Translations under genes and position numbers: made by a program
The notes under the pieces: generated by a model
Told to the model about the DNA's origin: nothing
Seen by the model: the letters and a program-made list of their open reading frames with translations, nothing else
Databases searched by the model: none
Source: a virus
Lineage: Duplodnaviria; Heunggongvirae; Uroviricota; Caudoviricetes
DNA length: 64,000 bases
Strand: one strand, 5' to 3'
IMG/VR virus record: IMGVR_UViG_3300002835_000064
Part shown: in pieces, positions 10,593 through 64,000 of the stretch
Layout of the letters: each line of letters starts with the position of its first letter
How positions within the stretch are numbered: position 1 is the first letter of the stretch

Positions 10593-10594
10593 TA

Positions 10595-14364: not shown

Positions 14365-14374
14365 GTGGGTTATC

Positions 14375-15483: not shown

Positions 15484-15511
15484 AGGTATTGTAATAGGCC
15501 AATAAATAGTA

Positions 15512-15519: not shown

Positions 15520-15560
15520 TGCATTTTTGCGGGTATTCCAAAAAACATTAAGGTGATAGG

Positions 15561-42941: not shown

Positions 42942-45900
42942 ATGTTTATATCTAAACCCCTATTAAATACTAGATTATTTACTGCCGCCACTATATTATT
43001 ACCATCAGATCCGTTACCGGCGGTTGTAGCTTCTGTTTTTTCGTATTCGCCTATAGATACATTAACGGTTAGAGGCGGAACTAAATATCGGGCAGATAAT
43101 GGAATACATCCATATCGATATAAATTAGTTGGATCTAATGATGTTGGTATTACTATCGATGAGTTTACTGGTGCAATAACAGGAACTATATCTCGAATTA
43201 ATGCTAAATTTTTAAATATAACATTAAGATTAGAAGTCGCGGATTTCCATAATATTCGAGCTAATTTTAATGATCCTATTGTTAATTTAGGAACAAAAAA
43301 ATATTGCACTATCGATATTAAAGTTTCATGGCCTGCCATAGTCGTTACTACACCAGCAAATAAAGCAACATTAAATAAAAATATGGATGATACTGTTAGT
43401 TTCAATCCATTTACTTATGCTGACGGTCATTATGATATAGTCGGTGGTGCAAGTGCGGGTGGGACTTTTGCTGATGCCGATTTTAAATATTATTTCGACT
43501 CGGAAAGTTTACAATTAGCGTTTCCCGAAGCAGTCCACGGTTCAGCTTTTTTTAATACTATAACCGAAACTTCGTTCGGTGATTTAATTTTAAATCCAGA
43601 TACTGGTGAAATTACTGGGCGATTAAATCATTATTTTAATCCTATGTTTAATCATACAGCCGGAACGAAGAATATGACGTTACCGGTATTCGTTCGAGAT
43701 AAATTTAGAAATAGCAGTAATGTTATTAACGTTCAATTTAATTTAACTTTAGAGCCGATTGCGATTATACCTGCACCACCTATTGATATTCATGTTACGG
43801 ATGGTAACCCAACTGATATATCTATACCGATAACTAATGGTAACGGTAATGGTGGTGTTGGGCCTTTTGATTATACATTTAATGATAATAGATTAACTGA
43901 TGAAGGTTTTAGAATTGTAACCGGAGATGATGGTGTTACTCGATTAGTAAGAGATGATGCTAGTTCTGGAGGTACTGGCGGATCAGGAGGTACTGGTGGA
44001 TCAGGAGGTACTGGTGGATCGGGAGGTACTGGTGGATCAGGAGGTACTGGTGGATCAGGAGGTACTGGTGGATCAGGTGGATCAGGTGGTACTGGAGGAA
44101 CTGGTGGATCAGGTGGATCAGGTGGTACTGGAGGAACTGGTGGATCTGGAGGAACTGGTGGATCAGGAGGTACTGGCGGAACTGGTGGAACTGGCGGAAC
44201 TAGTTCGACTATAACTGTTACCGACGGAGCTGGTCAAACCACAACTATAACGATTTGGGTTGAAGTCGTACCTGATATCGTATTAACAGCAACTAATCAA
44301 ACTATTATATTAGTAGTAAATGATCCATTAAGTTATTATGATGATAATTCTAAATCATATTATAACAAATATGTTTTAGATCCGTTTAATGGCACGACGG
44401 GTGGGTATCCAGTAAGTACCGCCGGCGGAGTTAGTGTTTATAAATCATATACTAGTTCGAATGTTTCTGTCCCGATCGGTTTAACCACTGGTATAGTAAC
44501 TAGAACATCATCGTTTGCAAATCCTAGCACCGATGGTTCGACTAAAAGTATTTTTACATTAACTGATAATTATGGGTTTACTAAAACTATCACCCATACA
44601 TATTTAATTTATCCAGCATTAGCCGCTTCGGTCGTTACTAGTTTACCATTAAAGGGTAATAATACGCAGTATAGAACTAAATCATTTTATAATGAATCAT
44701 CATTAGCTATATTCGAACCAATTACAGTAACAGCCGGTTCTGGTTCATATGTTTATCATATAAAAAGTACGACTGACGGTGCTATTATAAACGGAACTAC
44801 AACCGATACAACCGACAAATATCAATTAGATATTAGAACTGGCGAATTATCATCAATTACGCAAGTTACTGGCGTCGGTCAAAAATTAATTGAAATTGAA
44901 GTTACCGATACTATCACTAAACGGGTAGTTAATGGATTATTTGTTCAACTATCCGTCGATTATAAACCATTTATTGTTGTTGATAACCCGGTCACGATAC
45001 CGGCGACCGAAACTATTCGAGGAAGTGCGTCTACTTATACTCCGAATACTATAACTAGTGGTAATGGTTCTTATACTTGGACCGTATCGGTCGAATCAAC
45101 GAATTCTCATAATACGACAGATTATGGTAATGTTTCTATCGATGCTAGTGGTATTGTTACTTATACTCCACCAATAACGTTACCGTCGGATATAAGAACT
45201 AATCCATCGGTTAATATAACAGTTACAGTTACTGATGTCGCATTAAGTGATTTACCGTCCGGAACACATACATATACATTTACCAGACCATTAGCATTAC
45301 CGGCAAATACTCCAGGAACTATTATATTAACTGGAGCTATTTCGGGTGCATATTATTCAGATACTGCAATTACTGCATCACTATCTGATTTCGATGATGT
45401 TGTTGGTAATGTTATTTGGTCTTTAATTCCATCTAATAATGCGGCACCGACTATAAATCAAACATTAGATAATGCATCAAGCGTTACTTACAATTCTAGT
45501 GTCGGGACTGACGTTACAGTAACCGCGACATATACCGATACCTTAGCTTCTAATCAAAGAGCTCAAACAACATTTAATATAAGACAAAGTTCAACCAAAA
45601 TAACAGATTTACCGACTGACGGTCCGTTCATAGATTATCCAGTTCCGCCGGGTATTATATCGATTGATGTCATCGTAAATGGTGGCGGTGGTGGTGGCGG
45701 TGGCTGGGATTTATTAACCGGAGGTGATGGTTGCGATGGTGATTCTATCACTGCCACTTTCGATGTTAATGTCGGTGAAAATCTACAAATTTATATTGGT
45801 GCTGGTGGTGCTGGCGGTACAGTTGTATACGACCAATTCCATTGGGATCAAATCAATAGAATACCGAATGATAAATTACCAAATATTATAAATCCAGCTA

Positions 45901-48404: not shown

Positions 48405-48413
48405 TTTAGTAAT

Positions 48414-49529
48414 ATGCATATATCAAAACCAAATTCCGAAGATAGAATTTTTGCAGCAACTAATATACTGATGCCCGAAAATGGTAAAGTTATTTTAGTT
48501 CGTGATACTATTATTTACTATCCAATCGATGCGTATACCGTACAAGGTGGAACTAGATTTAAAACTAATCCATGGACTAGTCCATATCGCTACAAGTTAG
48601 TCGGTCCTAATGCTCTTGGTTTAGTTATTAATTCTAAAAACGGTAAGATATCCGGAACTGTAAATCCAATATCAACTAAAACAAAAATAGTTCCGGTAAA
48701 AATAGCGATATTTGATAGTATTAATAAAAAATGTAATTTTTCCGACCCGCTAAATAATTTCACTAGAATAAAATTTTGTACTATTTATTTTGACGTTAGA
48801 TGGCCGCCTATTAGTGCAGCTATAACTAAAACATCATTAATTATTAATATTAACGATACTATAGACTTTAATCCATTTGTTAATAATGGGGTTTCTGTTG
48901 TTACTGGCGGAACTGGTAAAAGTTTTAAATATGAATTCGATGTCGACTATTTAAAATTATTATATCCGCATATTTCATTCGGACCTAATATTACAAAAAA
49001 AACATTCGGTAGTTTATCACTTAATAATAATACCGGAAAAATTACTGGGACTATATCAACAGAGTTCTTAGAATTTTTTAATAACAATAAATTCGGAACT
49101 AAAATAATTCCATTATATTTTATCATTAAAGATAGATTAAATAATATTAGTGGTGTTGATAATGACGGTAAAATTTACAGTAGAATTAAGATTGATTTAT
49201 CATTAACTGTAGATGAATTATATATTTTAACTCCTCCAAATCCAATTAATTTAACCTTAGCCAAAGCGGTTGATAATACTAACCAATCATTTACTGTTAT
49301 ATCTAAAATTGGCGGGGGATTAAAACCGTATACAGTTTCCTTCGAATCTAAAACTTTCGATAAACATTTTCAATTGATAATTCAGTCAGATGATTCGGTT
49401 ATTATCAAACCTAAAACGGTCAATTTGCCGGAAATACCCCGCATTAACAATCAATCGTCGGCAAAAGTTAACGTTATTGATTCTATGGGGCAATTCGCCT
49501 ATATTACTGCGTTTATAGAAGTTCATTAA
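48414..49529 (+). CDS. 371-aa paralog consisting only of the shared N-terminal Ig/cadherin-like module
   Basis: MHISKPNSEDRIFAATNIL..., RYKLVGPNALGL, DFNPFVNNG...GKSFKYEFDVDYLKLLYP... are colinear with the first ~370 aa of ORFs 42942 and 49615. Confidence 0.55.
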   Translation: MHISKPNSEDRIFAATNILMPENGKVILVRDTIIYYPIDAYTVQGGTRFKTNPWTSPYRYKLVGPNALGLVINSKNGKISGTVNPISTKTKIVPVKIAIFDSINKKCNFSDPLNNFTRIKFCTIYFDVRWPPISAAITKTSLIININDTIDFNPFVNNGVSVVTGGTGKSFKYEFDVDYLKLLYPHISFGPNITKKTFGSLSLNNNTGKITGTISTEFLEFFNNNKFGTKIIPLYFIIKDRLNNISGVDNDGKIYSRIKIDLSLTVDELYILTPPNPINLTLAKAVDNTNQSFTVISKIGGGLKPYTVSFESKTFDKHFQLIIQSDDSVIIKPKTVNLPEIPRINNQSSAKVNVIDSMGQFAYITAFIEVH

Positions 49530-49614
49530 TATGATAGAACAGGTAAAATTACCGTTGATAAAGATAAATATCATATTATCCATTTATACCATTTTAACCA
49601 TACCGTGAGTAATT

Positions 49615-52600
49615 ATGTTTATATCAAAACCATTATTAAATACTAGATTATTTACTGCAGCTACTGCTAGTTTACCGGCGAATAATACAGTAGAAGTCGA
49701 AGTAAATTCATTAGTATCATTCTCACCAGTTAATTCTCTTACTATAAGAGGTGGTACTAAATATAGAGCAAATAACTACGCATTCCCGTATAGATATCAA
49801 TTTATCGGAACTAATACATTAAATTTAACTATCAATAACCAAACCGGATTAGTTAGTGGAACTATTCCAAGAATTAATGCAAAATCGATAACTTCAGATG
49901 CAATGAAAATAGAAGTTGTTGATTTTCAAAAATATCGAGCTAATTTTGCGGATAGATTAGATAATTTCAAAAAAAATCGATATTGTGAAGTTTTATTTAA
50001 AGTTGTTTGGCCGGCTATCGTCGTTTCAATACCCCAAAATAAATTATCATTTGCTCAAAATATGGATGATACTGTTAGTTTTAATCCATTTATTGATGCG
50101 AATAATAATTATGTGGTTTCTGGTGGGGCAATGGCGGGCGGAACTTATGCGGATGCCGGATTTAAATATGAATTTGATATTGATAAATTAAAAGAAGTTT
50201 ATCCATCAGTTCCATTCCTTAATGATATATCGGCGACTACTTTTGGTGATCTATCTATTAATAACGATACTGGTTTAATAACTGGGAAATTAAATGATAA
50301 ATTTTTAACATTTTTTTCAGATCATGTTCCTGCTACTAAAAATAAAGCATTATATTTTATAGTTAAAGATAAATTCGATAACAAATATGGTGTGGATAGA
50401 GATGGGAATATTAATAACCGAATTAGTATTAATTTAGCGTTAACTCTAACTGAATTAACGGTCGATGCGCCAGCAACCGCGGCTAATTTATTTTATTTAA
50501 AAAGTTGGTTTAATCCACAAAATCCATCTCCAATAAAATTAATTAATAATGTAACATTAGGTATTAAACCATATACATATACTTTCGCATCAACAGTTTT
50601 TCCGGATAATGGTTTAGCATTAGCCCAACAAGCTGATGGGTCTGTTAATTTAACCCGACCTTTAGGTGCAACAAATCAAATATTAGCTGCAAATAACGGA
50701 ACAACTGCAGTTATTAATATAACAGATAAAGTAGGCCAACAAAAATCAATAACTGCATTTATTGAGATTCGAGATAATATTTGGTGGGATGATGGGAACA
50801 CTGGTACTAGAAATTTTGATATTGCTGTCGGTGATGGATTATTGACGATATATGACGATAATACAAAATCATATTATAATAAATTTGTAAAATCACCATT
50901 TCCTAACTTGACTGGCGGTTATCCGGTTTATGCATTTACTGCATCAAATAATTCAACGACTATCAACGCAACTACCGGATTGGTAAATAATCAATCATTT
51001 GCTACGGTCGGATCATATACTAATGATTATACAGTCACTGATTCGAAATCGTATACATGGTGGGTAAGACATAATTATAAAGTTTGGCCAAAATTAATTG
51101 CAGTTATTGATTCTACCTTACCGTTAGTAAATAATAAAAAAACAAAAATATATTTTGCAGAAACTAATTTATCTAATTTTAAACCATTCGAAATAACGAC
51201 TGCTGGTTCTGGAACTTATAAGTATGCGATAACTGCATCTAGCGGAACATATGCTAGTCGTTATTCAATGAATGAGGATACTGGCGCCATATCAACTGCT
51301 ACTATAGTAATGGATGACGCCGCAGTTACTAATTTTACAGTTATGATAACGGATATAGTTACTCATGTCGTAATAACGGGCGAAGTTCAGATTAATACCA
51401 AACCAGCTAAAGTTTCAATCAATCCATTAACCTTTACTTATCCATTAAATGAAGTTAATGGATTTTCTCCATTTACTGATGTTTCTTCGAATAATACAAT
51501 AACATCTAAATTATCTGGCGTTCCCGTATTTAAATATAGTTTTGTTACGTCGGCGTCTGATACTGATTCTGGCGTCGCAACCAAAGATTATTATACCATC
51601 GACTCAACTGGTAAAATTACATATACTGGTAATGGTTTACCATTCGATATGGCAAAAACAATTCTATATGTTAAAGTAGCTGATAATGATTCACCTACTG
51701 TAGTTAAACCAGCAATTGCAACGATTACCTTATTTGGATTAACTATTACTTTTTCTGGTTTAGCTCCTCAAATTGGAAGTTCTCTTTCAGTCAGTGGATT
51801 ACCGTCTGGCGCCTCAGGTATGACATATCAATGGTATACTGTTGATAATGGTGTAGCGTCTATATTATCTGGATCTACTGGGACTACATTTACGCCTGCT
51901 GCAACCGAAACCCATAAAAGTATAGCAGTCGTAGTAAATTACGTATCCGACGGTTTTAAATATTCGGTTAGTTCATTAAACTCGGTTACTGTTTTAGCAG
52001 CAGATGAAACACCAATTTCATTCTCGTATCCAGTATTTGCATATAAATGGAGTAAAACAAATGTAAATAATTTTGGTCAGGCTGATATGGATGGTTATTT
52101 TGCGGTTTATGGTCAAGGGACGATAACTAATGCGCCTAGAATTGGCGGCGGCGGTTTTAGCGCTCAAGGTGGGGCGAGTGTTTGTTACGTAACTAATATA
52201 TCAGGTCATCCATCCGCGAATACTGCTGCGGATTTAACAGCAGCTAGTTATTCGTCTAGTGGGTATATCGACGTTCAAAAAACTAATATTTACGAAGCAT
52301 TTAAATTCGAATTAAAAACTATATTAACAGACCCCACATTTAAAAATATTAAATATTTTGCATTCGTAGTTCATGACTTAGCATCAGTTTTGCGGACTGT
52401 CGGTTCACAATTAACCTATAAGTTATATGATTTCGAGAATCCTAGTGTTATTTTAGATAGTACGGCAATGCAGGAACCAGGTAATGGTTATATATTTAAA
52501 ACCAATATGGCGTATGATGGTAGTGCAGCATCTGCAGTCGTTTTAGGATATTTTACTAGATACGAATCGGTTTGGGTTTATACGCCGAAAATGGTTTATT

Positions 52601-53280
52601 TACCTGGTTCTGGTGATAGCGACCCGAATATATCCGGATTACATTTAGATGCACCGAAAGTAGTAGTTCCTCCTAATCATGCACCGACTGGTTCAATTAC
52701 TATAACTAGTAATAATGCAGCTAATGCCGCCGGTTGTACATTATCATTAACTAATACCGTAGCTGATGCTGATGGATTAGGGACTTTCTCATATCAATGG
52801 AAAGCCGACGGAACTGCAATTGCGAACGCAACAGCGGCTACTTATAAAACAGTAGCTTCGGATAACGGTAAAGTTATGACTTGCGAAATGAAGTATACTG
52901 ACGGTATTGGAAATTTAGAGACTATTACAAGTTCAAATTCAATTACCATTACACAAAATCATCCAGCAACTCTTACGGTTACTCTAACGGGAACCGGTAA
53001 AATAGGCGAGAATTTAACCGCTACTATAACTAATGCATCGGATGCGGAAGGATTAGATTCAAACGCATATCAGTACATGTGGAGTTATAGCTCGAATAAT
53101 CAATTGCGAAATGGTTTCAACGCACCAAATTCGGGGTCGTATTATAATAGTTCTACGTATCCAGTTCAAGCTCCACTAGTAGTGGGCAATGCGGTTTATG
53201 TCCGTGTTTGGGTAACCGACGCATTGGGTGTAGCGAGTGGGTGGGCTGAAAGTAATGATATTATAGTTGCTGCGGCGTAA
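49615..53280 (+). CDS. 1221-aa paralog: shared N-terminal module plus C-terminal Ig-like (Y-Q-W...GAT..TYT) repeat domains
   Basis: MFISKPLLNTRLFTAAT start identical to ORF 42942; the 20-nt context including the ATG (GAGTAATTATGTTTATATC) is duplicated; C-terminal repeats MTYQWYTVDNGVASILSGSTGTTFTP and FSYQWKADGTAIANATAATYKTV resemble those in fibre 5465-7045. Confidence 0.6.
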   Translation: MFISKPLLNTRLFTAATASLPANNTVEVEVNSLVSFSPVNSLTIRGGTKYRANNYAFPYRYQFIGTNTLNLTINNQTGLVSGTIPRINAKSITSDAMKIEVVDFQKYRANFADRLDNFKKNRYCEVLFKVVWPAIVVSIPQNKLSFAQNMDDTVSFNPFIDANNNYVVSGGAMAGGTYADAGFKYEFDIDKLKEVYPSVPFLNDISATTFGDLSINNDTGLITGKLNDKFLTFFSDHVPATKNKALYFIVKDKFDNKYGVDRDGNINNRISINLALTLTELTVDAPATAANLFYLKSWFNPQNPSPIKLINNVTLGIKPYTYTFASTVFPDNGLALAQQADGSVNLTRPLGATNQILAANNGTTAVINITDKVGQQKSITAFIEIRDNIWWDDGNTGTRNFDIAVGDGLLTIYDDNTKSYYNKFVKSPFPNLTGGYPVYAFTASNNSTTINATTGLVNNQSFATVGSYTNDYTVTDSKSYTWWVRHNYKVWPKLIAVIDSTLPLVNNKKTKIYFAETNLSNFKPFEITTAGSGTYKYAITASSGTYASRYSMNEDTGAISTATIVMDDAAVTNFTVMITDIVTHVVITGEVQINTKPAKVSINPLTFTYPLNEVNGFSPFTDVSSNNTITSKLSGVPVFKYSFVTSASDTDSGVATKDYYTIDSTGKITYTGNGLPFDMAKTILYVKVADNDSPTVVKPAIATITLFGLTITFSGLAPQIGSSLSVSGLPSGASGMTYQWYTVDNGVASILSGSTGTTFTPAATETHKSIAVVVNYVSDGFKYSVSSLNSVTVLAADETPISFSYPVFAYKWSKTNVNNFGQADMDGYFAVYGQGTITNAPRIGGGGFSAQGGASVCYVTNISGHPSANTAADLTAASYSSSGYIDVQKTNIYEAFKFELKTILTDPTFKNIKYFAFVVHDLASVLRTVGSQLTYKLYDFENPSVILDSTAMQEPGNGYIFKTNMAYDGSAASAVVLGYFTRYESVWVYTPKMVYLPGSGDSDPNISGLHLDAPKVVVPPNHAPTGSITITSNNAANAAGCTLSLTNTVADADGLGTFSYQWKADGTAIANATAATYKTVASDNGKVMTCEMKYTDGIGNLETITSSNSITITQNHPATLTVTLTGTGKIGENLTATITNASDAEGLDSNAYQYMWSYSSNNQLRNGFNAPNSGSYYNSSTYPVQAPLVVGNAVYVRVWVTDALGVASGWAESNDIIVAAA

Positions 53281-53349
53281 ATGGTAAATTAACCGTCGGA
53301 TAAATACAATATTATAATCATATTTCCCTATTTTTGGAGTTAATTTAAT

Positions 53350-54864
53350 ATGTTATCCGACGGCTTACAATTTCTCGCGGGAGCAGTAAATACAAATTTT
53401 TCACTTCCGTTTACTAATAATTTATCCACTGTCGTTAACGCGACCCGAGGGGATTTAGTTTACAATACTGGGATTAACCCAGGTCTTTATATTCATGATG
53501 GAGCTAAATGGGTTTTAGGCTTAGATTTAGGACCACAAACCGCTACACCCGATGCTGAAGTAACTACAAATAAAGGCATTGCTGGTGGATATGCTGCATT
53601 AGATACTAATAGTTTATTATTAACAGCTAACTTACCAGCATTTACTGGAGATGTTACTTCAAATGCCGGTTCTAATACTCTATCATTAAATGCAATTCCT
53701 TGGAGTAAACTATCAGGTAAACCAACCACATTATCAAATTACGGTATTATCGAAACTGATGATTTATTAGTTGGTTTAATGAATAGTAAAGTTTCAAAAT
53801 CTGGTGTTGCATTAGCCGCAGGCACGGCAATTAAAGTTACCTTTAATTCAAATGGTTTAATCACAGCTGCTGGTTCATTAGCATTATCTGATATTCCGGA
53901 TTTACCTTGGAATAAAATTACAACTGGTAAACCGACTGCATTAACTGGTTATGGTATCACTGAAGCTGATCCATTATTAATGGCGATATCTAACTCTAAA
54001 ATAAATAAACCAAGTACCGCTTTAACGCCAACTACAGCCACCAAAATTTCATTTAATGAAAATGGTTTAGTTACTAGTTCTGGTTCATTATCAGCTAATG
54101 ATATTCCTATTATACCTTGGTCTAAATTAAATAATACTCCGACTTTATTAACTAATTATGGTATTAGTGAAGCTGATCCATTATTAATGGCATTATATAA
54201 TGCCAAAGTTCAAAAATCGGGTGCTATGTTGACAGCCGGAACTGCAACTAAAGTTACTTTTAATGCTAGTGGTTTAATAACTGCATCTAGTCCATTAACC
54301 GTTTCTGATTTACCTGCCGGTTCATTAACTACGACGTCAGATTTAAATTGGGATAGAATTACCAATCATCCAACTACATTAGCTGGTTATGGTATAATTG
54401 CAACTGATACTATATTAACGGCTATTACTGATTTGATTACTGGTGTTAATGGTGGATCATCTGCTATTACAGCAGATCCAACTATTAAAATAGTTCGAGT
54501 AAATGGCGATAATTATAATATAACAGTTGCTGATAATGGTAAATTTTTACAAGTAAACGATGAAGTTAATAGATCAATTATAGTTCCTGCGGTTGGTGTT
54601 TTAACTATAGGTAAAAACTTTACCGTTTATAATCAATCACCTAATTATATAACAAACGTAGTAATTCCGGTTGGTTATACAGTTCGTCAAAGTGGGGATG
54701 CAACTATAAAAATTAATGGTGCTAATGGTGGTAAAATTGTCATCGCCCCATTCTGTAAAGTTACTTTATTATTTACGTCGGAAGATGGAACATCAACTGG
54801 ACCAACATCAGCAGTTAATCAAATTATTGTAGATGGTGTTTTTGATACTGCATCATTAACCTAA
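53350..54864 (+). CDS. tail fibre protein (504 aa) with repeated LPAFTGDVTS-type modules
   Basis: N-terminal MLSDGLQFLAGAVNTNFSLPF...GDLVYNTGINPGLYIHDGAKW is paralogous to 38267 and 54962; four ~45-aa repeats (S.L.A.DIP.LPW.KI...PTTL..YGI.E.D). Confidence 0.6.
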   Translation: MLSDGLQFLAGAVNTNFSLPFTNNLSTVVNATRGDLVYNTGINPGLYIHDGAKWVLGLDLGPQTATPDAEVTTNKGIAGGYAALDTNSLLLTANLPAFTGDVTSNAGSNTLSLNAIPWSKLSGKPTTLSNYGIIETDDLLVGLMNSKVSKSGVALAAGTAIKVTFNSNGLITAAGSLALSDIPDLPWNKITTGKPTALTGYGITEADPLLMAISNSKINKPSTALTPTTATKISFNENGLVTSSGSLSANDIPIIPWSKLNNTPTLLTNYGISEADPLLMALYNAKVQKSGAMLTAGTATKVTFNASGLITASSPLTVSDLPAGSLTTTSDLNWDRITNHPTTLAGYGIIATDTILTAITDLITGVNGGSSAITADPTIKIVRVNGDNYNITVADNGKFLQVNDEVNRSIIVPAVGVLTIGKNFTVYNQSPNYITNVVIPVGYTVRQSGDATIKINGANGGKIVIAPFCKVTLLFTSEDGTSTGPTSAVNQIIVDGVFDTASLT

Positions 54865-54961
54865 TAAAATCGTTTAAAATTAAGTAGTTCGTGGTAGTTC
54901 TAGCCGGTAGAATAAATAAAATATTACAATACAAATTTACATCATTTGGAGTTAATATTAT

Positions 54962-57900
54962 ATGTTATCTGCCGGCTTACAATTTATTGGTGGAGCAGTA
55001 AGTTCCAATCTTATCTTACCGTTTACCAACAATTTAGCATCCATTACACCAGAACGCGGGTCAATCGTTTATAATACAGGTGTTAATCCTGGTATTTACA
55101 TATATAATGGAACCACATGGATGGACGTAGTCCCAGTTCCAGACGGCGACCCATCAAAAATTATTTCATCAAATACACTTCCAGCATTTACAGGTGATGT
55201 TCGTTCGGTAGCCGGATCTGCAACATTATTATTAAATGATATTTTACCAGACTTAATTGGTGATGAAGCTACTTATAATTCAGTCGTAGTTAATAGTAAA
55301 GGTCAGATTATTGATGGGTATTACTATACCACATTAACCGATATGGGTATATCTGATGCGGATGAATTATTATTAAACAAAGAAATAATTGATAATAAAG
55401 GTATGCCGGATGGTTACGCCGGTTTAGATTCCGATGCATATTTGTTAGCTGAAAATTTTCCGGGATTTACTGGAGACGTAGTTTCAGTTCCCGGTACTAA
55501 TATATTAACCTTAAAATCATTAAATAATGCATCTAACCCATTAGTTTCAATTACCGGAACTTATAATTCAGTTATCGTTAATAATAAAGGTTTAGTAATT
55601 GGTGGTACTAAATTAGATTTATATACAAAATCGGAAGTTGATTTTTTAATTGGTAGTAATGTTTATCAACTCGATACTCAATTAGTTAATATAGCTGGAA
55701 CTCAAACTCCAATTAATTATAAAAATTCAAAATATGCTATATTAAATAATACCGCTGCAGCTAGTGCAAAAAAGGGTGATATTGCTGTCGTTACTGCAGT
55801 TAATACTACTTACGTTAGAAAACAAATAACTGAAGATATTTTATCTGATTGGATTGAATTACCTCAGCGCGATAATGGATTAAGTGGCGTCGATATTACA
55901 TCTAGATTAACCCTTGATCTTAGATTAACTAATACTTCAGCTGGATTGCAGATTATTAATTCAGCTAATCCGGGTCGTAGATTTTCATTACCTGCTCCAT
56001 CTACAGTTCAAACTGGCGGACCATTATTCATCTTTAAAAATAAAGATATTACTAATGGATTTAAATTATTTACATCGACTGGTAATTTCTTATTTGATGT
56101 GAATAGTGATTCTACTGTTAGTGTTTATCTAGCCGGATCAACTGACTTAGATTGGATGTTCGTCGATCATAGCTTAAAAGGTCGCGAATTATCAAGTAAT
56201 AAATCAGCCAATACATCATTAGTTGGAACTAATAATGTTTCTAGTGATACTTTATATCCGACTCAAAAAGCAGTTAAAACTTACGTCGATAATAAAATAT
56301 CTGACAATATTACCAGTATAAAAGGAACCTCTATTACAACTGGCGGTAATGCCCCAGAATTAATTAATGCTGGTTTAGCCACATTAGATAAAAATAATTT
56401 ATTAACAATTGAGCAATTACCGCCTCAAGCTATTGCTAAAGTTTATAGTTTACCTGCGACGTATGATAAAGATGGTCAAACGTATACAACTTCTACGATA
56501 AATTATTTGGATGCATTATATGCTTATGCATCGACCAATAATATTGAATACAATATCGGTGATACTTTAGTTATCGATAGTCTTAAAAAGACTTTTATTG
56601 TTCAATCTGTTGGGCCAGTTCATTTCCTTGATTTACCGGTTGGTGTTACTTCTGTTAATGGTCGAATTGGTGCCGTTACTATAGATGCAAGTGATGTTTC
56701 TACTGGTGTATTTGACCCTAGTTTAATACCGAACGTTACATCTATTAGCTCAGTTAGAAATCATGGTCCTATCACCGAATCGTTAGTACTAACCAAGGAT
56801 TCTGAAAATATTCAGTTGTTTAGTACACAAACCGATAATTTAAATATTAAATTACCAGCTGTATCGTCAATGTCTGCGGTCGGCGTTAAATTTATTATTA
56901 AAAATACAGGTTTCGTTACTGAAAAATCAATAGATATTAAAAATTCAGCTAATACTACATTATATACATTAGCTCCAAACCAAGCAGTTACTGCGATATT
57001 AGTTAATAAGGATATTGATGATGCCTCATCTTGGATTGTAGCTGGTTATGCGGTTCCGGATCGATTTGCTGAATTAGATCGCAATAAAAAAATATTAGCA
57101 GCTCAATTACCGACCTTTACTGGTGATGTTACTTCTGATGGAACTGATATTACGATTAAAGATGCACCATTTTATAATGAATCGTATACTGATGAGTTTT
57201 ATGGTTATACGAAAGTTAATAGACAAGGTTTAATTACCGACGTTAAAAATAGATTAGTTACTATATCAGATATCAATCAATTACCAGAATTGAGTGATGA
57301 TACTTTTGATCCAGATATTAGATATTCAATAGCGGATACAAAATTAGTTTATACTTGGGATGGAAGTAAATATGTTCTAGTAGATAACTTATATGCAGCC
57401 CATAATTATATTATAAGTACATTAGGGGCCGATAAATCACACATCATTAAACCAGGATCGAAAGCATTATTAGCAACTAAAGGTGATTTAGTTCATATTT
57501 TATCCGAGAAAAAAACCTATTATTTAAATAGCCCTAATTCATCCGTTTTAGCTAATTGGGTTGAATTGTTTGCTAATTTAGAGGGTGTTGAATTTGCAGC
57601 GAATAAAAATAAAATCGATGGTTATGCTGGTTTAGATGCATCGGGTAAATTAGATTTAACTCAAATCCCAGCTTTTGCGTATACTAAAGTAGAATCAGAT
57701 GCTAAATATGCAGATAAAACATTATTAGGTGATCGAAATACAGCTGGTGGTTATTTAGGTTTAAATTTAGATAATAAAATAGATTCTGCTTATTTACCTG
57801 CGATTACAACTAATAATATCGCAACTGTTACTACTATAGCAGAACGTGATGCATTAGTTGCATCTATTGGTGATATGGCTATAGTGATGGGGTCTGTAAA

Positions 57901-60900
57901 TAAGAATTATATCTTATCTGCAACCGAGCCTAATGTTTGGACTGAATTAGCTAATCCGACCGGAGGTGTAACCTCAATAAACGGTAATACGGGGGTTATT
58001 AGTTTAACATTAGCGAATATATCGGGAACCTTACCTGCGACTGCTTTACCGACGTTTACTGGTGATATTTTACGAGCAAATGGCTCAGCTGAACTGACTA
58101 TTGCTAAATTAAACGGTATCGTATTAGATTCATCGTTTAATGGAACAACATTGCCATCAGACGGTGCAGTTTTTACTTATTCGGTAGCTGGCGGTAAAGC
58201 AACTTGGCGCCCATTAACAATCAATAATTTATCTGGAACATTAAGCCCGACTGCATTACCTGCATTGATCGGTGATGTTACTTCTATCGCTGGAACTAAT
58301 AATTTAGCAATTAATAAATTAAACGGTATTAATTTAGATCCAGCATTTAGTGATTCAGTTTTACCTGACGATGGTGATGTATTTACTTTCTCTGCGACCG
58401 GCGCTAAAGCAACTTGGAAACCATTAAATGCGAGTAGCTTTACTACCGGAACATTATCAATTAATATTTTACCAGCATTCGCTGGCGATGTTTCATCAGT
58501 TGCTGGAACAAACGAATTAGTTATATCTAAAATTAACGGTATTGCATTAGATACTGAATTTAATAAAGATAACTTACCAATTGATGGTTCCATTTTAACT
58601 TATTCGTCATCTACTTCTAAAATAGCATGGAAAGCATTTGATGCAAGTATAATGGTAACTGGAACGTTAGGAATCGGTAGGTTACCAGCGTTTACTGGAG
58701 ATGTAACGTCTACTTTAGGAACCAATACTTTAACCTTATCGAATACTGGAGTCGTTGCTGGAACGTATAATTCAGTAACGGTGGATGCAAAAGGTCGTGT
58801 TACTGCTGGATCATCATTTGAAACCTATTCAAAAACAGAAGCCGATGCAAAATACTTACTAAAAACAGCTCTAGGTAATAGAGATGAAGCGGGTGGATAT
58901 GTCGGTTTAAATAATGCGAAAAAAATCGACCCTTCTTTCTTACCAGCAATTACATTAAATACGTCATATAGTGTTACTACATTAGAAGAAAGAGATGCAT
59001 TAACAACCACTAATATTGGCGATATCGCTATTGTAACTGGTGATATAAATGCGACTTATATTTTATCGAATGCGTCACCAAAGACTTGGACTTTATTATC
59101 AAATCCATTAAGTGCAGGATCTGGTTTTAACCCAGATAGTTTTGTTTTAGCTGATATTAAAGGTAATTTATCAGCGGAAGCATTACCAGCATTTACTGGT
59201 GATGTTACTTCAGTTGCTGGGACTAATATATTAACATTATCTAATACTAATGCAATTGCCGGTACTTATAATAATGACGCTAGTGCAATAACTCCATTTA
59301 CTGTCGATACTAAAGGTCGAATTGTTAGTGTTGGATCTCCAGTTACTATCAAACCACATTTTACTGATATTATTGGGATGCCTGCATCATTAGCCGATTT
59401 CGGTATTGGTGATTTATATACTAAAGCACAAATAGATACCTTAATAACTAATAAATTAGAAAAAAATGCGGATATTGTTGCTGGTTCAGGTTTTAAAATT
59501 ACTTATGACACAAAAGGTTTAATTACTGGCAGTTCAGATTTATTATTAGCTGATATCCCAGCATTACCGGCAGATAAAATTACATCTGGCATCATTGATA
59601 TTAATAGATTACCAGCTAATTTAGTATTTAAAGATGAATCTGGTAGTATTCCATCATCGTTAATTCCATCAGTTTCATTAACTAGTACAGTAACTCCAGC
59701 TACCACTGCGGATATGACTTCGTCTACTGCATCTACTGGTACTTTAGCTATTATTACGAACGACCCAGATCCGACTAAAAATGGATCTTATATTAAAGCG
59801 GATGATGGTTCATGGAAACAATTATCAGTACCGACTGGAACAGTTGCTTCGATTAACGGCAAATCAGGTAATATTGAAAAAATATTACCAGAAGATATAG
59901 CCGGTTTATTTGCAGATGATTTAAATAAAACATTATTAACTTCAAAATTACCGTTATTTGATGGTGATATAGTTTCAACTGCAAATAATAGAAATATATT
60001 AACTTTAAAAGATATTCCGACTATAACCGAAAATATTAGTTATACTTCAGTTAAAGTAAATAGTAAAGGTATAGTAATTGGCGGTATAATTGGCGATAAT
60101 TATAATAAAGCTGATATCGATGATAAATTTGTTACTAAATTATCTTTAGGTGAGAAAAATGCAATTGGTGGTTATGTTAGTTTAAATCTATCGAATGCAA
60201 TTCCAGCAGAACATTTACCGATATTTGACGGCGATGTTGTTTCTACATCATTTGCGAGAAATACATTAACATTAAAAGATATGCCTGGTTTAGTAGAAGG
60301 CGCTTCTTATTCTTCTATTACTGTAAACAAAAAAGGTTTAGTAATTGGTGGTTCAATCGGAACTAACTACTCCAAAGAAGAAATCGATACTAAATTTTTA
60401 TCGAAATCAATTGCTGGCGATCGTAATGCACCAGATGGTTTTGCCGGATTAAATTCAGACGGTAAAATCGATTCGGCTTATTTACCATCTATTACATTAA
60501 ACAATATCAAATCAGTTACTACAATTGCTGCGAGAGATGCATTAGTAGCAAAAATTGGTGATATTGCTATCGTATCCGGTAATATCAATAAAACCTATAT
60601 ATTATCGTCATTAACACCAAAAATTTGGAACGAAATGTTAAGTCCAACTGGTGGTGTTACGTCAGTTAATGGTAATATCGGGGCTGTTACTTTAGATTTA
60701 TCTAATTTACCTGGTAATTTAGCAATGGAAAATGCGCCAGTTTATACAACTGGCGATGTAATAACTAATGTTGATACCCATGAATTATCATTAAATACAA
60801 TTGATGGATTAGCGGCCGGGACTTATAGTAAAGTTACGGTTAATAATAAAGGTTTAGTAATAGCAGCAACTCAATTGACATTAGCTGATATTCCAGATTT

Positions 60901-63900
60901 ATCTTGGGATAAAATTAAATTAAATAAACCCACTACCTTAGCAGAATTTGGTATTACTGATGTTGTATCTGCGAGTGATGTTAGATTAACTGATTCTAGA
61001 ACACCATTAGCTCATACTCATGCTATTGCAGATATTATCGATTTAAGATCCGAATTAGACAGTAAAATGATCGGTAACCCGACTATTATTGCAAAAACCG
61101 GATTTAAAATATCATATGATGCAAAAGGTTTAGTAACAAGTAGTTCAGAACTCACATTAGCTGATATTCCTGAGTTATCTGCAGATAAAATTACATCTGG
61201 ATTAATTGATGTTAATCGATTACCGACTAATGTAGTTTTGATGGATTCTAATGGTAATTTACCATCTAATTTAATTCCTACGGTTTCATTAACTGGAACC
61301 ATTACTGTTGCTTCTTATGCTGCGATGATAGGTAGTACATCATCTGCGGTAGGAACTGCAGCTATAGTAACATCGGACCCAGATCCATCTAAAAACGGAA
61401 CATATATTAAAGCTGCCGGTAATATCTGGCGTACTTTAGTTACTCCAACTAATACGGTTTTATCAATTAATAGTAAATTTGGCCATATTGGTAAAATTAC
61501 TCCAGATGATATATCGGGTGTGTTTGCCGATGATGCAAATAAAACAATATTACCATCTAAATTACCTGATTTTGATGGCGATGTGATTTCTTCTACTTCA
61601 TCTAAAAATACTTTATTATTAAAAGAAATTCCTGGTTTATCTGAAAATGTTAGTTATTCATCCGTTCGAGTAAATAGCAAAGGTTTAGTTATCAGCGGTA
61701 TAGTCGGCGATAATTATACTAAAACGGAAATTGATAGTAAATTTATTCCAAAAACTGCATTAGGTGAACGCAATATAGCTGGCGGATACGCAGGATTAAA
61801 TCCATCTAATACTATAGATGCAGATCAATTACCAGCATTTGAAGGAGATGTAATATCATCAGCTTCTCATAAAAATGTTTTAACCTTAAAAGAAGTTCCT
61901 GGTTTAATTGAAAATATTAATTATGCATCAGTTAAAGTAAATAGTAAAGGTATAGTAATTGGTGGTATAGTCGGTGAAAATTATACTAAGGATGAAATAG
62001 ATAGCAAATTCTTATTAAAATCGGTTTCTGGTGATAAAAATGCAGCTGGTGGTTTCGTAGGATTAAATTCATCATTAAAAATAGATCCAGCGTATTTACC
62101 AGCAATTACATTAAATTCAATTAAAGCAGTTACTACAATTGCAGAACGAGATTTATTATCAGTTCGAGTTGGTGATGTTGCTATAGTTGCTGGTTCAGTT
62201 AATAAGACCTTTATCTTAGCAGATACATCACCAAAAACTTGGATTGAAATGTTAAATCCAGTTGGTGGTGTTGCTTCAGTTAATGGTAATACTGGAGCTG
62301 TTGTTTTAGATTTATCTAATTTATCGGGAACTTTATCAATTGATAAATTGCCTGCATTTACAACTGGAGATGTAATTACTAATTCAACAACAAAAGAATT
62401 AGAATTAAAAACGATTGGTGGTTTAATCGCAGGTACGTATAGTAAAGTAACTATCAATAATAAAGGGTTGGTAACTAATGCATCTCAATTATCAGCATCA
62501 GATATTCCAGATTTATCCTGGGATAAAATTATTAATAAACCGACTACGTTGGCTGAATTTGGTGTCGGTGATGTCGTTTTAACGACTGATGTTAGATTAA
62601 ATAATGCAAGAGAACCATTAGCTCATACGCATACGATTAGTAATATTCTTGGATTGCAAGATACCTTAGATAATGTATTATCTAAAAATATTGATATTAC
62701 ACCGAATACTGCAACTAAAGTAACATATGATAATAAAGGTTTGATAACTGGTAGTGAATCATTAGCGGCGGCTGATATTCCTAATTTAGATATTAGTAAA
62801 ATTACCGGATTACAAGATACATTAACTTTATTACAAACTTCATCTAGTACTGGCTTAGCTAAAAATGCAGATATCGTAGCTGGAGTCGGCACTAAAATAT
62901 CATATGATATTAAAGGTTTGGTAACTGGTAGTTCTAATTTAACCGCAACCGATATTCCAACGTTACCGATTAATAAAATTTCTGGTCTGCAATTAGCGTT
63001 CGATGATAAAGTTACTAAAAATGCAAATATACCTGCGGGATCCGGGTTTAAAATTACATATGATGCTAAAGGTTTAGTAACTGGTAGTTCTAATTTAACA
63101 TCATTGGATATACCACTATTAAGCATTAATCAGGTTGATGGTTTACAAGCTAGTTTAGATACTAAATTAACAAAACCTAGTCAAATTACTGCTGGTTCCG
63201 GTACTAAAATTACATTTAATGCCGACGGTTTAGTAACCTCAGGTACTGCGATGACTGATGCCGATTTACCGAATCTAGCCATTTCAAAAATTACTGGATT
63301 GCAATCAGCATTAGATAATAAATTAACTAAAAATGTAAATGTTATTGCTGGTACTGGCGTTAAAATTACATATGATGCTAAAGGTTTAGTAACTGGTAGT
63401 TCAATATTAACATCGACTGATATTCCGACTTTGCCGTCAACTAAAATTAGTGGGTTACAAAATATATTAGATTCCGTTATGTATGCTAATGTTCCTATTA
63501 CATCAGGCACTGCAGCTAAAATAACATATGATGAAAAAGGATTAGTAACTGCCGGTACATCATTAATCGCATCCGACATACCAGATTTAAACATCAGTCA
63601 AATTACTGGATTACAAGATGCATTATCTGGTGGGGCAACTGCCGATTTATTAAATACCGCAATTGATGCATTGAAAGATAATGTTGCGGCTGAAGGTGAT
63701 ACACTTAAAAAATTATACGATTTAATCGTTGCTAGTTTTAAAGAGATTACAGTAGCTGATACTGCAGCTAGAGATGCATTTGATGTTAAAACTTTACCGA
63801 CTAATTTATTCGTTTCTGATGATGGTGATGGTCATTGGGCATTATATAAAGCAACGTCTACTGGAATTGGAGCTACTTTCATTAAGTTATCAGATCCAGA

Positions 63901-64000
63901 TTTATTAAATTCGTCTATTGGTTTTAATCCAGAAAACGTTATTAATAAATCAGCTGATACTACGTTAGGTGGTTTAACGCCAGACGATATTAAATACCCA
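54962..64000 (+). CDS. giant tail fibre protein, more than 3012 codons, open at the window end (3' partial)
   Basis: Uninterrupted reading frame from the ATG at 54962 to the end of the window; N-terminus MLSAGLQFIGGAVSSNLILPFTNN..GSIVYNTGVNPGIYIYNGTTW is paralogous to 53350; the upstream TTTGGAGTTAAT...ATG context is duplicated; two R-x-P-L-A-H-T-H motifs. Confidence 0.65.
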   Translation, partial: MLSAGLQFIGGAVSSNLILPFTNNLASITPERGSIVYNTGVNPGIYIYNGTTWMDVVPVPDGDPSKIISSNTLPAFTGDVRSVAGSATLLLNDILPDLIGDEATYNSVVVNSKGQIIDGYYYTTLTDMGISDADELLLNKEIIDNKGMPDGYAGLDSDAYLLAENFPGFTGDVVSVPGTNILTLKSLNNASNPLVSITGTYNSVIVNNKGLVIGGTKLDLYTKSEVDFLIGSNVYQLDTQLVNIAGTQTPINYKNSKYAILNNTAAASAKKGDIAVVTAVNTTYVRKQITEDILSDWIELPQRDNGLSGVDITSRLTLDLRLTNTSAGLQIINSANPGRRFSLPAPSTVQTGGPLFIFKNKDITNGFKLFTSTGNFLFDVNSDSTVSVYLAGSTDLDWMFVDHSLKGRELSSNKSANTSLVGTNNVSSDTLYPTQKAVKTYVDNKISDNITSIKGTSITTGGNAPELINAGLATLDKNNLLTIEQLPPQAIAKVYSLPATYDKDGQTYTTSTINYLDALYAYASTNNIEYNIGDTLVIDSLKKTFIVQSVGPVHFLDLPVGVTSVNGRIGAVTIDASDVSTGVFDPSLIPNVTSISSVRNHGPITESLVLTKDSENIQLFSTQTDNLNIKLPAVSSMSAVGVKFIIKNTGFVTEKSIDIKNSANTTLYTLAPNQAVTAILVNKDIDDASSWIVAGYAVPDRFAELDRNKKILAAQLPTFTGDVTSDGTDITIKDAPFYNESYTDEFYGYTKVNRQGLITDVKNRLVTISDINQLPELSDDTFDPDIRYSIADTKLVYTWDGSKYVLVDNLYAAHNYIISTLGADKSHIIKPGSKALLATKGDLVHILSEKKTYYLNSPNSSVLANWVELFANLEGVEFAANKNKIDGYAGLDASGKLDLTQIPAFAYTKVESDAKYADKTLLGDRNTAGGYLGLNLDNKIDSAYLPAITTNNIATVTTIAERDALVASIGDMAIVMGSVNKNYILSATEPNVWTELANPTGGVTSINGNTGVISLTLANISGTLPATALPTFTGDILRANGSAELTIAKLNGIVLDSSFNGTTLPSDGAVFTYSVAGGKATWRPLTINNLSGTLSPTALPALIGDVTSIAGTNNLAINKLNGINLDPAFSDSVLPDDGDVFTFSATGAKATWKPLNASSFTTGTLSINILPAFAGDVSSVAGTNELVISKINGIALDTEFNKDNLPIDGSILTYSSSTSKIAWKAFDASIMVTGTLGIGRLPAFTGDVTSTLGTNTLTLSNTGVVAGTYNSVTVDAKGRVTAGSSFETYSKTEADAKYLLKTALGNRDEAGGYVGLNNAKKIDPSFLPAITLNTSYSVTTLEERDALTTTNIGDIAIVTGDINATYILSNASPKTWTLLSNPLSAGSGFNPDSFVLADIKGNLSAEALPAFTGDVTSVAGTNILTLSNTNAIAGTYNNDASAITPFTVDTKGRIVSVGSPVTIKPHFTDIIGMPASLADFGIGDLYTKAQIDTLITNKLEKNADIVAGSGFKITYDTKGLITGSSDLLLADIPALPADKITSGIIDINRLPANLVFKDESGSIPSSLIPSVSLTSTVTPATTADMTSSTASTGTLAIITNDPDPTKNGSYIKADDGSWKQLSVPTGTVASINGKSGNIEKILPEDIAGLFADDLNKTLLTSKLPLFDGDIVSTANNRNILTLKDIPTITENISYTSVKVNSKGIVIGGIIGDNYNKADIDDKFVTKLSLGEKNAIGGYVSLNLSNAIPAEHLPIFDGDVVSTSFARNTLTLKDMPGLVEGASYSSITVNKKGLVIGGSIGTNYSKEEIDTKFLSKSIAGDRNAPDGFAGLNSDGKIDSAYLPSITLNNIKSVTTIAARDALVAKIGDIAIVSGNINKTYILSSLTPKIWNEMLSPTGGVTSVNGNIGAVTLDLSNLPGNLAMENAPVYTTGDVITNVDTHELSLNTIDGLAAGTYSKVTVNNKGLVIAATQLTLADIPDLSWDKIKLNKPTTLAEFGITDVVSASDVRLTDSRTPLAHTHAIADIIDLRSELDSKMIGNPTIIAKTGFKISYDAKGLVTSSSELTLADIPELSADKITSGLIDVNRLPTNVVLMDSNGNLPSNLIPTVSLTGTITVASYAAMIGSTSSAVGTAAIVTSDPDPSKNGTYIKAAGNIWRTLVTPTNTVLSINSKFGHIGKITPDDISGVFADDANKTILPSKLPDFDGDVISSTSSKNTLLLKEIPGLSENVSYSSVRVNSKGLVISGIVGDNYTKTEIDSKFIPKTALGERNIAGGYAGLNPSNTIDADQLPAFEGDVISSASHKNVLTLKEVPGLIENINYASVKVNSKGIVIGGIVGENYTKDEIDSKFLLKSVSGDKNAAGGFVGLNSSLKIDPAYLPAITLNSIKAVTTIAERDLLSVRVGDVAIVAGSVNKTFILADTSPKTWIEMLNPVGGVASVNGNTGAVVLDLSNLSGTLSIDKLPAFTTGDVITNSTTKELELKTIGGLIAGTYSKVTINNKGLVTNASQLSASDIPDLSWDKIINKPTTLAEFGVGDVVLTTDVRLNNAREPLAHTHTISNILGLQDTLDNVLSKNIDITPNTATKVTYDNKGLITGSESLAAADIPNLDISKITGLQDTLTLLQTSSSTGLAKNADIVAGVGTKISYDIKGLVTGSSNLTATDIPTLPINKISGLQLAFDDKVTKNANIPAGSGFKITYDAKGLVTGSSNLTSLDIPLLSINQVDGLQASLDTKLTKPSQITAGSGTKITFNADGLVTSGTAMTDADLPNLAISKITGLQSALDNKLTKNVNVIAGTGVKITYDAKGLVTGSSILTSTDIPTLPSTKISGLQNILDSVMYANVPITSGTAAKITYDEKGLVTAGTSLIASDIPDLNISQITGLQDALSGGATADLLNTAIDALKDNVAAEGDTLKKLYDLIVASFKEITVADTAARDAFDVKTLPTNLFVSDDGDGHWALYKATSTGIGATFIKLSDPDLLNSSIGFNPENVINKSADTTLGGLTPDDIKYP
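59466..62690 (+). repeat. tandem segmental duplication of a ~1.6-kb module (about 59466-61080 and 61080-62690) inside the giant fibre gene, followed by about seven ~150-nt tandem repeats (62690-63600)
   Basis: Colinear protein modules with roughly 60-70% identity (e.g. LPLFDGDIVSTANNRNILTLKDIPTITENISYTSVKVNSKGIVIGGIIGDNY vs LPDFDGDVISSTSSKNTLLLKEIPGLSENVSYSSVRVNSKGLVISGIVGDNY; both end in PLAHTH); a near-identical 40-mer aaaattacatatgatgctaaaggtttagtaactggtagttc occurs at about 63051 and 63361. Confidence 0.7.

Follow-up and report, generated by a model that had tools for sequence, protein, structure and literature searches.

The last open reading frame (ORF) of the 64,000-nt stretch of viral DNA analysed here (Caudoviricetes; IMG/VR record IMGVR_UViG_3300002835_000064), hereafter the window, is the 5′ part of a giant gene whose product is most likely a tail fibre. 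We favour the explanation that this is a single late gene for a virion fibre of an uncultured T4-like jumbo myovirus, modular in its make-up, enlarged by old nested duplication and working through the register and docking mechanism proposed below; to this explanation as a whole we assign a probability of about 0.72. The parts of the protein are ordinary, known fibre elements, and it is the scale and the clean record of old nested duplication that are unusual. Its body is written in four elements: a hairpin unit, a helix-turn unit (DIP.L...KI), a knob of ca. 130 aa and a histidine-x-histidine (HxH) element. Amplification took place at nested levels, yielding units of 52–92 aa and, above these, a 537-aa supermodule present five times.

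Frame 1 from position 54962 runs for 3,013 codons through the window end at 64000 with zero stops, whereas this DNA read in the two remaining forward frames has 267 and 431 stops; at the composition of the window (33 % G+C), a run this long without a stop has a chance probability of about 1e-103. No contig of the viral, metagenome or genome collections contained the exact sequence of a 50-mer taken from the end of the window. When 1.84 billion representative proteins were searched with a profile built from the first 62 residues, they yielded a protein of 5,730 aa (P0172) whose residues 1–3013 are identical to the translation of the window. Its gene is situated on ENA contig k141_321674 (locus L004, 26,085 nt, sample ERZ27271758), which is identical to window positions 46865–64000 at 17,135 of 17,136 positions; the single mismatch, at window position 62950, is synonymous, because the proteins from the window and from the contig are identical. 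The frame spans from contig position 8098 to a TAA codon at 25288–25290, giving a gene of 17,193 nt for a product of 5,730 aa, of which the window holds the 5′ 53 % (codons 1–3013). The original prediction had described an uninterrupted frame of more than 3,012 codons, had read it as one giant fibre gene and had proposed looking for the stop codon in the downstream sequence; the frame is indeed open throughout, the stop is present in the longer contig, and there is therefore one gene of 17,193 nt, with its 5,730-aa product recovered from an independent assembly and matching tail fibre families of PHROG (see below). A second 5,730-aa member of the same protein cluster, annotated by NCBI as a hypothetical protein, comes from contigs of 107–108 kb. 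The complete gene contains only two exact repeats of at least 40 nt (43 and 41 nt), and the complete protein contains 24 histidines among its 5,730 residues (0.4 %) and no cysteine, 16 of the histidines being within the 3,013 residues of the window, which likewise lack cysteine. A megablast search with the 9 kb against 50,697 phage records did not produce any match.

Chunked comparison of the protein with itself revealed a diagonal of 587 residues, offset by 537 aa (1,611 nt), that is, the off-diagonal that the original prediction expected in a self dot-plot. With the boundaries placed just after the HTH residues, the first two supermodules, M1 and M2, align over 536 residues, with two gap columns; 326 of these residues (61 %) and 69 % of the nucleotides are identical, and the same codon is used for 228 of the 326. 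The predicted tandem module of ca. 1.6 kb thus exists with the same period, its limits shifted by ca. 58 nt from those first given, and both copies end in R-x-P-L-A-H-T-H as claimed (RTPLAHTH and REPLAHTH). M1 comprises a 52-aa-type unit, a variant knob, two 86–92-aa sub-repeats, knob K3, a hairpin and an HxH element. Nested duplication extends further than could be seen in the window, because the full protein contains five copies of the supermodule: M3 (ca. aa 3014–3690) is enlarged by extra sub-repeats of 89–92 residues and is followed by M4 (ca. aa 3691–4232) and M5 (ca. aa 4301–4829). The five are mutually 58–65 % identical in amino acids and 67–71 % in nucleotides, with no closer pair among them. 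Two further periodicities had not been listed previously: the 86–92-aa sub-repeat within each module, and a 70-aa repeat with the consensus LP..LP.F.GD...L.I.K.NGI.LD..F...P.DG..Y....A.W, present in three to four copies (aa 1015–1266). Tandem Repeats Finder detected only the 267-nt sub-repeat, the larger repeats being too diverged for it.

Downstream of M2 there is an array of 52-aa units with the consensus KN..I.AG.G.KITYD.KGLVT....L...DIP.L...KI.GLQ..L, spaced 177, 156, 156, 156 and 156 nt apart, and two solitary copies of the unit occur at the heads of M1 and M2, one in each. Here the results depart from the original prediction, which counted about seven copies sharing near-identical 40-mers and took them as a recent expansion. 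We find six tandem copies, at 62675–63631, with pairwise identities of 57–71 % in nucleotides and 44–65 % in amino acids; an exact 43-mer is common only to copies 3 and 5, in agreement with the claim for that pair, whereas all other pairs share at most 23 exact bases. Neither the array copies nor the large modules (67–71 % nucleotide identity, as above) are as similar as a recent expansion would leave them. Moreover, copies of the modules in the fibres of other phages are 55–60 % identical in amino acids, as against 58–65 % within the giant gene. Since two copies from the gene resemble each other no more than copies from different phages do, and their DNA is only ca. 70 % identical, the amplification is, judging from these identities, old and not recent. 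Drift to ca. 70 % DNA identity would also allow five direct repeats of 1.6 kb to persist without recombinational collapse.

Between and around these repeats, the ~130-residue knob, with the consensus Y.K...D.K......G.RN..G..GLN...KID...LP.I..N......T...RD.L....GD.A.V......Y.L......W.E...P.GGV.S.NG..G.V.L, is present as seven canonical copies, four of them in the window, along with diverged ones, and the hairpin unit LP.F.GDV...G.Y..V.V...G.V..G as about 15 full copies in the window. A single-copy element closes the window portion (GDTLKKLYDLI...DDGDGHWALYKA...NKS.D..L....YP.) and continues past its end as TQKAVKAYVD. The last 900 residues contain more hairpins and two domains of ca. 100 residues that are 43 % identical (E 9e-27). 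A monomer model of knob K3, from a 22-row alignment, had a mean pLDDT of 71.8 with a core of ca. 90, and a Foldseek search of this model against the PDB gave nothing significant. Pfam had essentially nothing on any segment of the giant protein, and the first of two putative side domains near the N-terminus (side domain A) matched no family.

The assignment as a fibre comes from comparisons with annotated families. The best match in PHROG is to a family of no known function (phrog_5181); other matches are to phrog_7389, 'tail fiber protein' (1.1e-51), and phrog_26941, 'tail protein' (1.1e-27); the C-terminal 901 aa also match phrog_7389 (4e-22). In tblastn, matches fell on tail fibre genes of phiCTX-like and other phages; those to phiCTX-type fibre genes showed 35–37 % identity in the repeats, over 11–15 % of the query (E 2e-6 to 3e-15). 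The fibres of P2 (gpH), phiCTX (ORF20) and the R-type pyocins appear to share with the giant the hairpin G.Y.KVTV.AKG.VT.G and the helix-turn DIP.L..SKI. A profile of the 52-aa unit matched the pyocin structures 6CL5 and 6CL6 weakly (E 0.02–0.027), over 22–24 residues at the start of the crystallised fragment (VTAGMALAATDIPGLDASKLVS); the 'helix-plus-turn' Rod domain of the pyocin fibre occupies residues 328–356, in the N-terminal part of the solved fragment (PMC6116203). The pyocin fibres have a trimeric shaft with one buried HxH-Fe site (PMC6116203). They differ from the giant in their length of 691 residues with one HxH, against 5,730 residues with three, and in their N-terminal adaptor, and the giant has no match to the pyocin Knob, Shaft or lectin 'foot'. 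In particular, there was no sign of the Knob-Knob-Shaft-foot architecture of pyocins in the C-terminal 901 aa, which in a PDB search gave only weak matches to FtbO, the monocin fibre. With the whole protein as query, FtbO was also the only PDB sequence to match (E 8e-4); the matched segment lacks HxH, and FtbO shares P.GGVTS.NG..G.V.L with the C-terminal flank of the knob. No Pfam or PDB match to the gp34, gp36 or gp37 sequences or families of the T4 long tail fibre was found in the giant.

All three HxH motifs of the giant lie in an element with the pattern D-x-R-[LF]-x-[DN]-x-R-x-P-L-A-H-T-H. They are found at aa 2018, 2555 and 3689 (35 %, 45 % and 64 % along the chain), at module junctions in the shaft's middle part and not at the tip; the first two are the only ones among the 3,013 residues of the window and the third (RAPLAHTH) closes M3. 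A related element in the 1,511-aa paralogous fibre, also noted in the original prediction, is present at nt 41384–41428 and is conserved as ...PTAHLH in a homologue (P0188). In a 14-sequence alignment of HxH-class copies, V, D, R, L, P and both H are invariant. A looser pattern, D/N-x-R-x-x-x-R/S-x-P, collected 31 distinct copies from related proteins, of which 23 have HxH, six HxT, one HxV and one neither histidine. Among the first 129 homologues, 55 HxH were observed where 6.2 are expected from the frequency of histidine, an excess of ca. 9-fold. A profile of the element matched chain La of PDB entry 9d93 (E 6e-14) over three stretches, including TPSSHTHSIANVTGLQDALDEKL and GNDSRLSNTRTP. This protein, gp4, deposited as 'Tail collar fibers', has only 356 aa, compared with the 5,730 of the giant, and shares with it P-x-x-H-x-H-x-I-x-x-I/V-x-x-L-x-x-x-L-D together with the preceding N-D-x-R-L-x-x-x-R-T-P; its histidine pairs are His 128/130 and His 173/175. 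The Pfam family PTR (PF12789) matches the same residues; with the whole giant as query its score is 23.6 bits, and with aa 2541–2893 it is 26.4 bits, below its gathering threshold of 27 bits, the match falling on HTHTISNILGLQDTLDN, and a precomputed 'faint' PTR hit is recorded for the 5,730-aa protein. A 54-aa profile of the element retrieved only three short proteins from a set of 5.8 billion proteins.

Sites in which HxH motifs from three chains form an octahedral Fe site have been described in T4 gp37, in the R1 and R2 pyocin fibres and in P2 gpV (PMC6116203), as well as in the stalks of the monocin protein FtbO (PMC11830787). In T4 gp37 and FtbO the Fe lies buried on the axis of the trimer (PMC6116203, PMC11830787), a probable model for the sites of the giant. 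Because of these published sites in trimeric fibres, metal binding is the best reading of the HxH motifs of the giant, plausible by precedent. The arrangement differs from that of T4 gp37, which has seven closely spaced HxH in its distal needle, whereas the three of the giant are ca. 540 and ca. 1,130 residues apart.

The N-terminus of the giant is an adaptor of ca. 60 aa, with the consensus ML.xGLxF..G...N..LP....G..VY....G.Y.Y.G..W, that it shares with the 504-aa and 1,511-aa ORFs of the same fibre cluster. The adaptor starts at residue 1 and its alignment (A3) has nine invariant positions; the 504-aa protein, with its adaptor, three 52-aa-type units and a C-terminal domain of its own, is a 'minimal' version of the giant. 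The adaptor profile gave full-length N-terminal matches in metagenomic proteins (P0126, P0002, P0128, P0151 and P0123, among others), and the metagenomic fibres headed by the adaptor measure 141–3,236 aa. Adaptor-bearing proteins range from 141 to 5,730 aa; the profile matched 5,374 proteins, and of the 150 best the giant is the longest. A full-length search retrieved metagenomic fibres of 1,805–3,479 aa having the same adaptor and modules in other orders and copy numbers, for example P0122, which has two 537-aa supermodules, 80 % identical to each other and 57–60 % identical to the copies in the window. These 'ML.DGL' fibres (P0121–P0128, P0151 and others, of 141–3,479 aa as against 5,730) resemble the giant in their adaptor and modules and differ in how they end, which is in an S74 chaperone (Peptidase_S74, P0125–P0127), in a propeller-like end of ca. 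500 aa or in a phrog_9017 tip. They occur in multi-fibre gene clusters of T4-like phages, and one of them (P0124) belongs to a six-gene fibre-like cluster adjoining a T4 gp13-like neck gene.

In 5,374 representative proteins, P0130, P0131 and P0143 among them, positions 12–60 of the adaptor reappear as an internal ca. 50-aa repeat (LIPRMT..QR.AI.SP..GLLIYQTD...GFYYYNGSAW). Some of these proteins have signal peptides, as does P0130, which has six adaptor-like copies, and one matches DUF2793. Together with the 33 % G+C of the window, the presence of such domains in secreted proteins like P0130 hints that the host may be low in GC and may belong to the Bacteroidota. The core of the knob has a pattern similar to this repeat. 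Homology of adaptor and knob core was examined with hhalign; the register of the alignment was suggestive, but with an E value of 0.024 and a probability of 2 % it was not significant and we rejected it as evidence.

The remaining genes of the window are those of a T4-like phage. They include a gp6-like baseplate wedge protein (phrog_10646, 3e-228), tape-measure-like proteins, a gp23-like capsid protein and, as in T4-like phages, a split topoisomerase II on the minus strand (23925–25229 and 25660–27546; phrog_551, 3e-137, and phrog_543, 4e-176); no tRNA genes were found across the 64 kb. The capsid protein shares 56 % identity with that of the Xanthomonas jumbo phage XacN1 and 45 % with those of the Rak2-like group. 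The fibre cluster comes directly after the capsid gene, and the baseplate genes are at 7055–20182.

On this basis we propose that the chain would form a parallel homotrimer. The adaptor would attach it to the baseplate or another fibre, at the place where the 504-aa and 1,511-aa paralogues would dock as well, and the knobs would act as local nodes of trimerisation or registration. At three module junctions, six histidines from the three chains would hold a buried metal, probably Fe, that clamps the register, and the two distal ~100-aa domains, perhaps with the side domains of the shaft, would bind the host surface. The long tail fibre of T4 measures ca. 145 nm, with ca. 2,500 residues per chain distributed over several proteins; scaled from its rise per residue, the reach of the trimer would be ca. 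0.3 µm, which would give a large virion that diffuses slowly a wider capture radius. To our knowledge, ca. 0.3 µm would exceed the fibres of any characterised phage. A more specific version, in which the giant is a covalent, multivalent ~0.3-µm 'fishing line' instead of a classical fibre that binds with its tip, whose register is kept by knobs with a trimerisation fold like that of collagens XV and XVIII (at least seven canonical ones) together with HxH metal clamps, and which carries binding domains along the shaft and at the tip, strikes us as rather improbable. A comparable apparent purpose has been proposed in another jumbo phage, Goslar (Chimalliviridae), whose long flexible filaments, a 'fibre cloud' of DUF7941 proteins, would widen the reach for host capture (bioRxiv 10.64898/2026.04.21.720040). 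The sequences are unrelated, and in Goslar small subunits, of which there are thousands of copies, join head to tail without covalent bonds to make up the filaments, in contrast to the one covalent chain of the giant.

Several results weigh against the proposed explanation. The second histidine is missing in 8 of the 31 copies of the element, which retain D, R, L, R and P and, in most cases, the first histidine, and M4 and M5 have no HxH element, so that the metal site, if real, is dispensable for the fold. The AlphaFold monomer of a whole module, from an 8-row alignment, had a mean pLDDT of only 49 and no fold search was done with it; a poor model is to be expected of an intertwined trimer and so shallow an alignment. 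Additionally, tblastn of the first 1,000 aa against the 50,697 phage records gave no match, and XacN1, the closest cultured relative by capsid protein, does not have such a cluster beside its capsid gene.

The variation in the second histidine and the absence of the element from two of the five modules bear also on what the motif does. It could be that the histidines are not metal ligands and are conserved as part of a structural or assembly motif, such as a turn before the short helix I..L...LD, in line with the monomer model, which at the HxH has coil and then helix at low confidence; we consider this possible, if somewhat unlikely. Against it stand the invariance of both histidines in all 14 aligned HxH-class copies, in a protein where histidine is otherwise rare, the ca. 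9-fold excess of HxH in homologues and the solved trimeric fibres and spikes whose HxH are described in the papers cited here, namely T4 gp37, the R1/R2 pyocins, P2 gpV, the phi92 and PA0616 spikes, FtbO and gp12, all of which are metal-bound, with Fe or, in T4 gp12, Zn (PMC6116203, PMC11830787).

The position of the fibre cluster next to the capsid gene, and not next to the baseplate genes, raises the question of whether the giant is a virion fibre other than a receptor-binding tail fibre, namely a 'hair' or whisker of the head, neck or tail sheath serving weak reversible adhesion or spacing. Some PHROG matches are to families labelled head decoration or virion structural protein, and the only solved relative of the HxH element is, as said, a collar fibre by its deposited name. 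Collar fibres are known from other phages, and phage CBB, whose capsid protein is 45 % identical, bears unexplained tail hairs of 119 nm (PMC5259590). However, the tail fibre genes of CBB likewise follow its capsid gene (PMC5259590), the strongest named family matches of the giant are tail fibre and tail protein, and homologues carrying this adaptor have C-terminal ends typical of receptor binding, either a Peptidase_S74 chaperone or a phrog_9017 tip. We regard this alternative as unlikely, and a tail fibre as the better reading.

It is quite improbable that the 5,730-aa product is a polyprotein cut into shorter fibre segments, or that it sheds a C-terminal chaperone. The self-cleaving Peptidase_S74 ends of the three relatives mentioned above, and the fact that the very long fibres of T4 are made of several gene products, would favour such processing; however, Peptidase_S74 (PF13884) is absent from the last 901 aa of the giant, no other protease or chaperone domain was found by Pfam there or elsewhere in the protein, and the module junctions bear no mark of cleavage sites. 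Finally, despite the strongly repetitive make-up of the gene and its origin in metagenome assemblies, the probability that it is an artefact of mis-joined repeats, or of fibre genes fused by sequencing errors, is close to negligible, given the agreement of the window with k141_321674, the second 5,730-aa cluster member on other contigs, repeats that are only 67–71 % identical in nucleotides, exact repeats too few and too short to mislead an assembler, and independent homologues of 2,821–3,479 aa that are also single ORFs.

Table 1. Positions in the window of the giant fibre gene, its parts and related features.
Feature	Coordinates	Strand	Basis
Giant fibre gene, 5′ part	54962..64000	+	ORF; comparison with P0172 and L004
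ATAAATA, late-promoter-like, ca. 45 nt before the start codon	54912..54918	+	Sequence inspection; putative function
GGAG ribosome-binding site, 10 nt before the ATG	54948..54951	+	Sequence inspection
N-terminal adaptor (aa 1–62)	54962..55147	+	Profile/alignment
Putative ~100-aa beta-rich side domain A (aa 300–410)	55859..56191	+	A vs B, E 1.5e-4
Putative ~100-aa beta-rich side domain B (aa 590–700)	56729..57061	+	Weakly related to A
Knob K1 (aa 907–1036)	57680..58069	+	Full-length HMM match, 220 bits
70-aa repeat, 3–4 copies (aa 1015–1266)	58004..58759	+	Self-comparison
Knob K2 (aa 1289–1415)	58826..59206	+	HMM
Supermodule M1 (aa 1484–2020)	59411..61021	+	Self-comparison, HMM
Knob K3 (aa 1803–1933)	60368..60760	+	HMM; modelled copy
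HxH element 1, DVRLTDSRTPLAHTH (aa 2006–2020)	60977..61021	+	Motif scan
Supermodule M2 (aa 2021–2557), tandem copy of M1	61022..62632	+	Self-comparison, HMM
Knob K4 (aa 2341–2471)	61982..62374	+	HMM
HxH element 2, DVRLNNAREPLAHTH (aa 2543–2557)	62588..62632	+	Motif scan; PTR 26.4 bits
Array of six 52-aa units	62675..63631	+	Repeat alignment
Single-copy element (aa 2895–3013)	63644..64000	+	Recurs in homologous fibres
1,511-aa paralogous fibre, shared adaptor, phrog_9017 tip domain	38267..42802	+	PHROG, alignment
HxH element of the 1,511-aa fibre, NDYRLTDDRYPTAHKH (aa 1040–1054)	41384..41428	+	Motif scan
1,820-aa ORF	42942..48404	+	ORF
371-aa ORF	48414..49529	+	ORF
1,221-aa ORF	49615..53280	+	ORF
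504-aa paralogous fibre, adaptor, three 52-aa-type units, own C-terminal domain	53350..54864	+	Homologue P0174

The other members of the fibre cluster are built on a different N-terminus. A region of ca. 350 aa, distinct from the ML.DGL adaptor, is common to the 1,820-, 371- and 1,221-aa ORFs; it is 45 % identical between the first and the last (E 7e-92), where it starts MFISKPLLNTRLF, and was recognised by eye in the 371-aa ORF, which starts MHISKPNSEDRIF. The 1,820-aa protein contains a (GGTGGS)n tract of ca. 75 residues, a glycine-rich domain and six FG-GAP repeats (3.5e-48), and the 1,221-aa protein contains Hoc-like immunoglobulin (Ig) domains. In the interval between the capsid gene and the first fibre gene, a 240-aa ORF (37487–38209, plus strand) has a knob-core-like motif (KKGEIAIIGDYTYLLI...ADWIQL) and a C-terminal tail rich in A, L and Q that to the eye resembles a coiled coil; the ORF may encode a small protein of the fibritin-like or decoration type.

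ATAAATA-like elements, often with ATATTA after them, occur on the plus strand near positions 35920, 37460, 42890, 49570, 53305 and 54912; they precede the capsid gene and most of the fibre genes by ca. 30–50 nt and resemble the T4 late-promoter core TATAAATA. This distribution suggests that each fibre gene may have its own late promoter. Promoter and terminator scans gave results at or below the shuffle expectation and were not used.

The gene following the giant on the longer contig (L004 25292–25873) starts 1 nt past its stop codon and codes for a 193-aa protein with an Mtd_N domain (5.5e-13), a common fibre N-terminus, and a phrog_9017 tip domain like the one in which the 1,511-aa fibre ends; the metagenomic protein P0215 is a fusion of this tip with the ML.DGL adaptor. 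No recognisable gene for a fibre-assembly chaperone was found downstream, where this protein is followed by an ORF that the end of the contig truncates. The Mtd_N protein led us to consider targeting by a diversity-generating retroelement; there was no reverse transcriptase among the ORFs scanned incidentally, no search having been aimed at one. Another jumbo phage with giant repeat proteins is represented by a JGI contig of 246 kb (Ga0456363_0000124, L001), which codes for a tubulin-family protein (14543–15697; Pfam Tubulin and Tubulin_2), two homologues of the 52-aa repeat a few kb from the tubulin gene (P0001 and P0003) and a 2,425-aa ORF.

At ca. 590 kDa per chain and ca. 1.8 MDa per trimer, the protein would rank among the largest phage structural proteins on record, and it is far larger than the fibres with which we compared it, including the R-type pyocin fibres, 9d93 gp4 and the long tail fibre of T4; a literature search found no paper on 'giant' or 'largest' tail fibres. 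The gene shows how a fibre can be lengthened by repeated duplication with the copies drifting to ca. 70 % DNA identity, at which homologous recombination can no longer collapse them. Its five diverged supermodules of 537 residues are a natural set for studying how register is kept in very long trimers. The adaptor family, with three paralogues in one phage and members of 141–5,730 aa across metagenomes, points to modular exchange of fibres, which is relevant to the engineering of host range. These findings do not overturn the current understanding of phage fibres.

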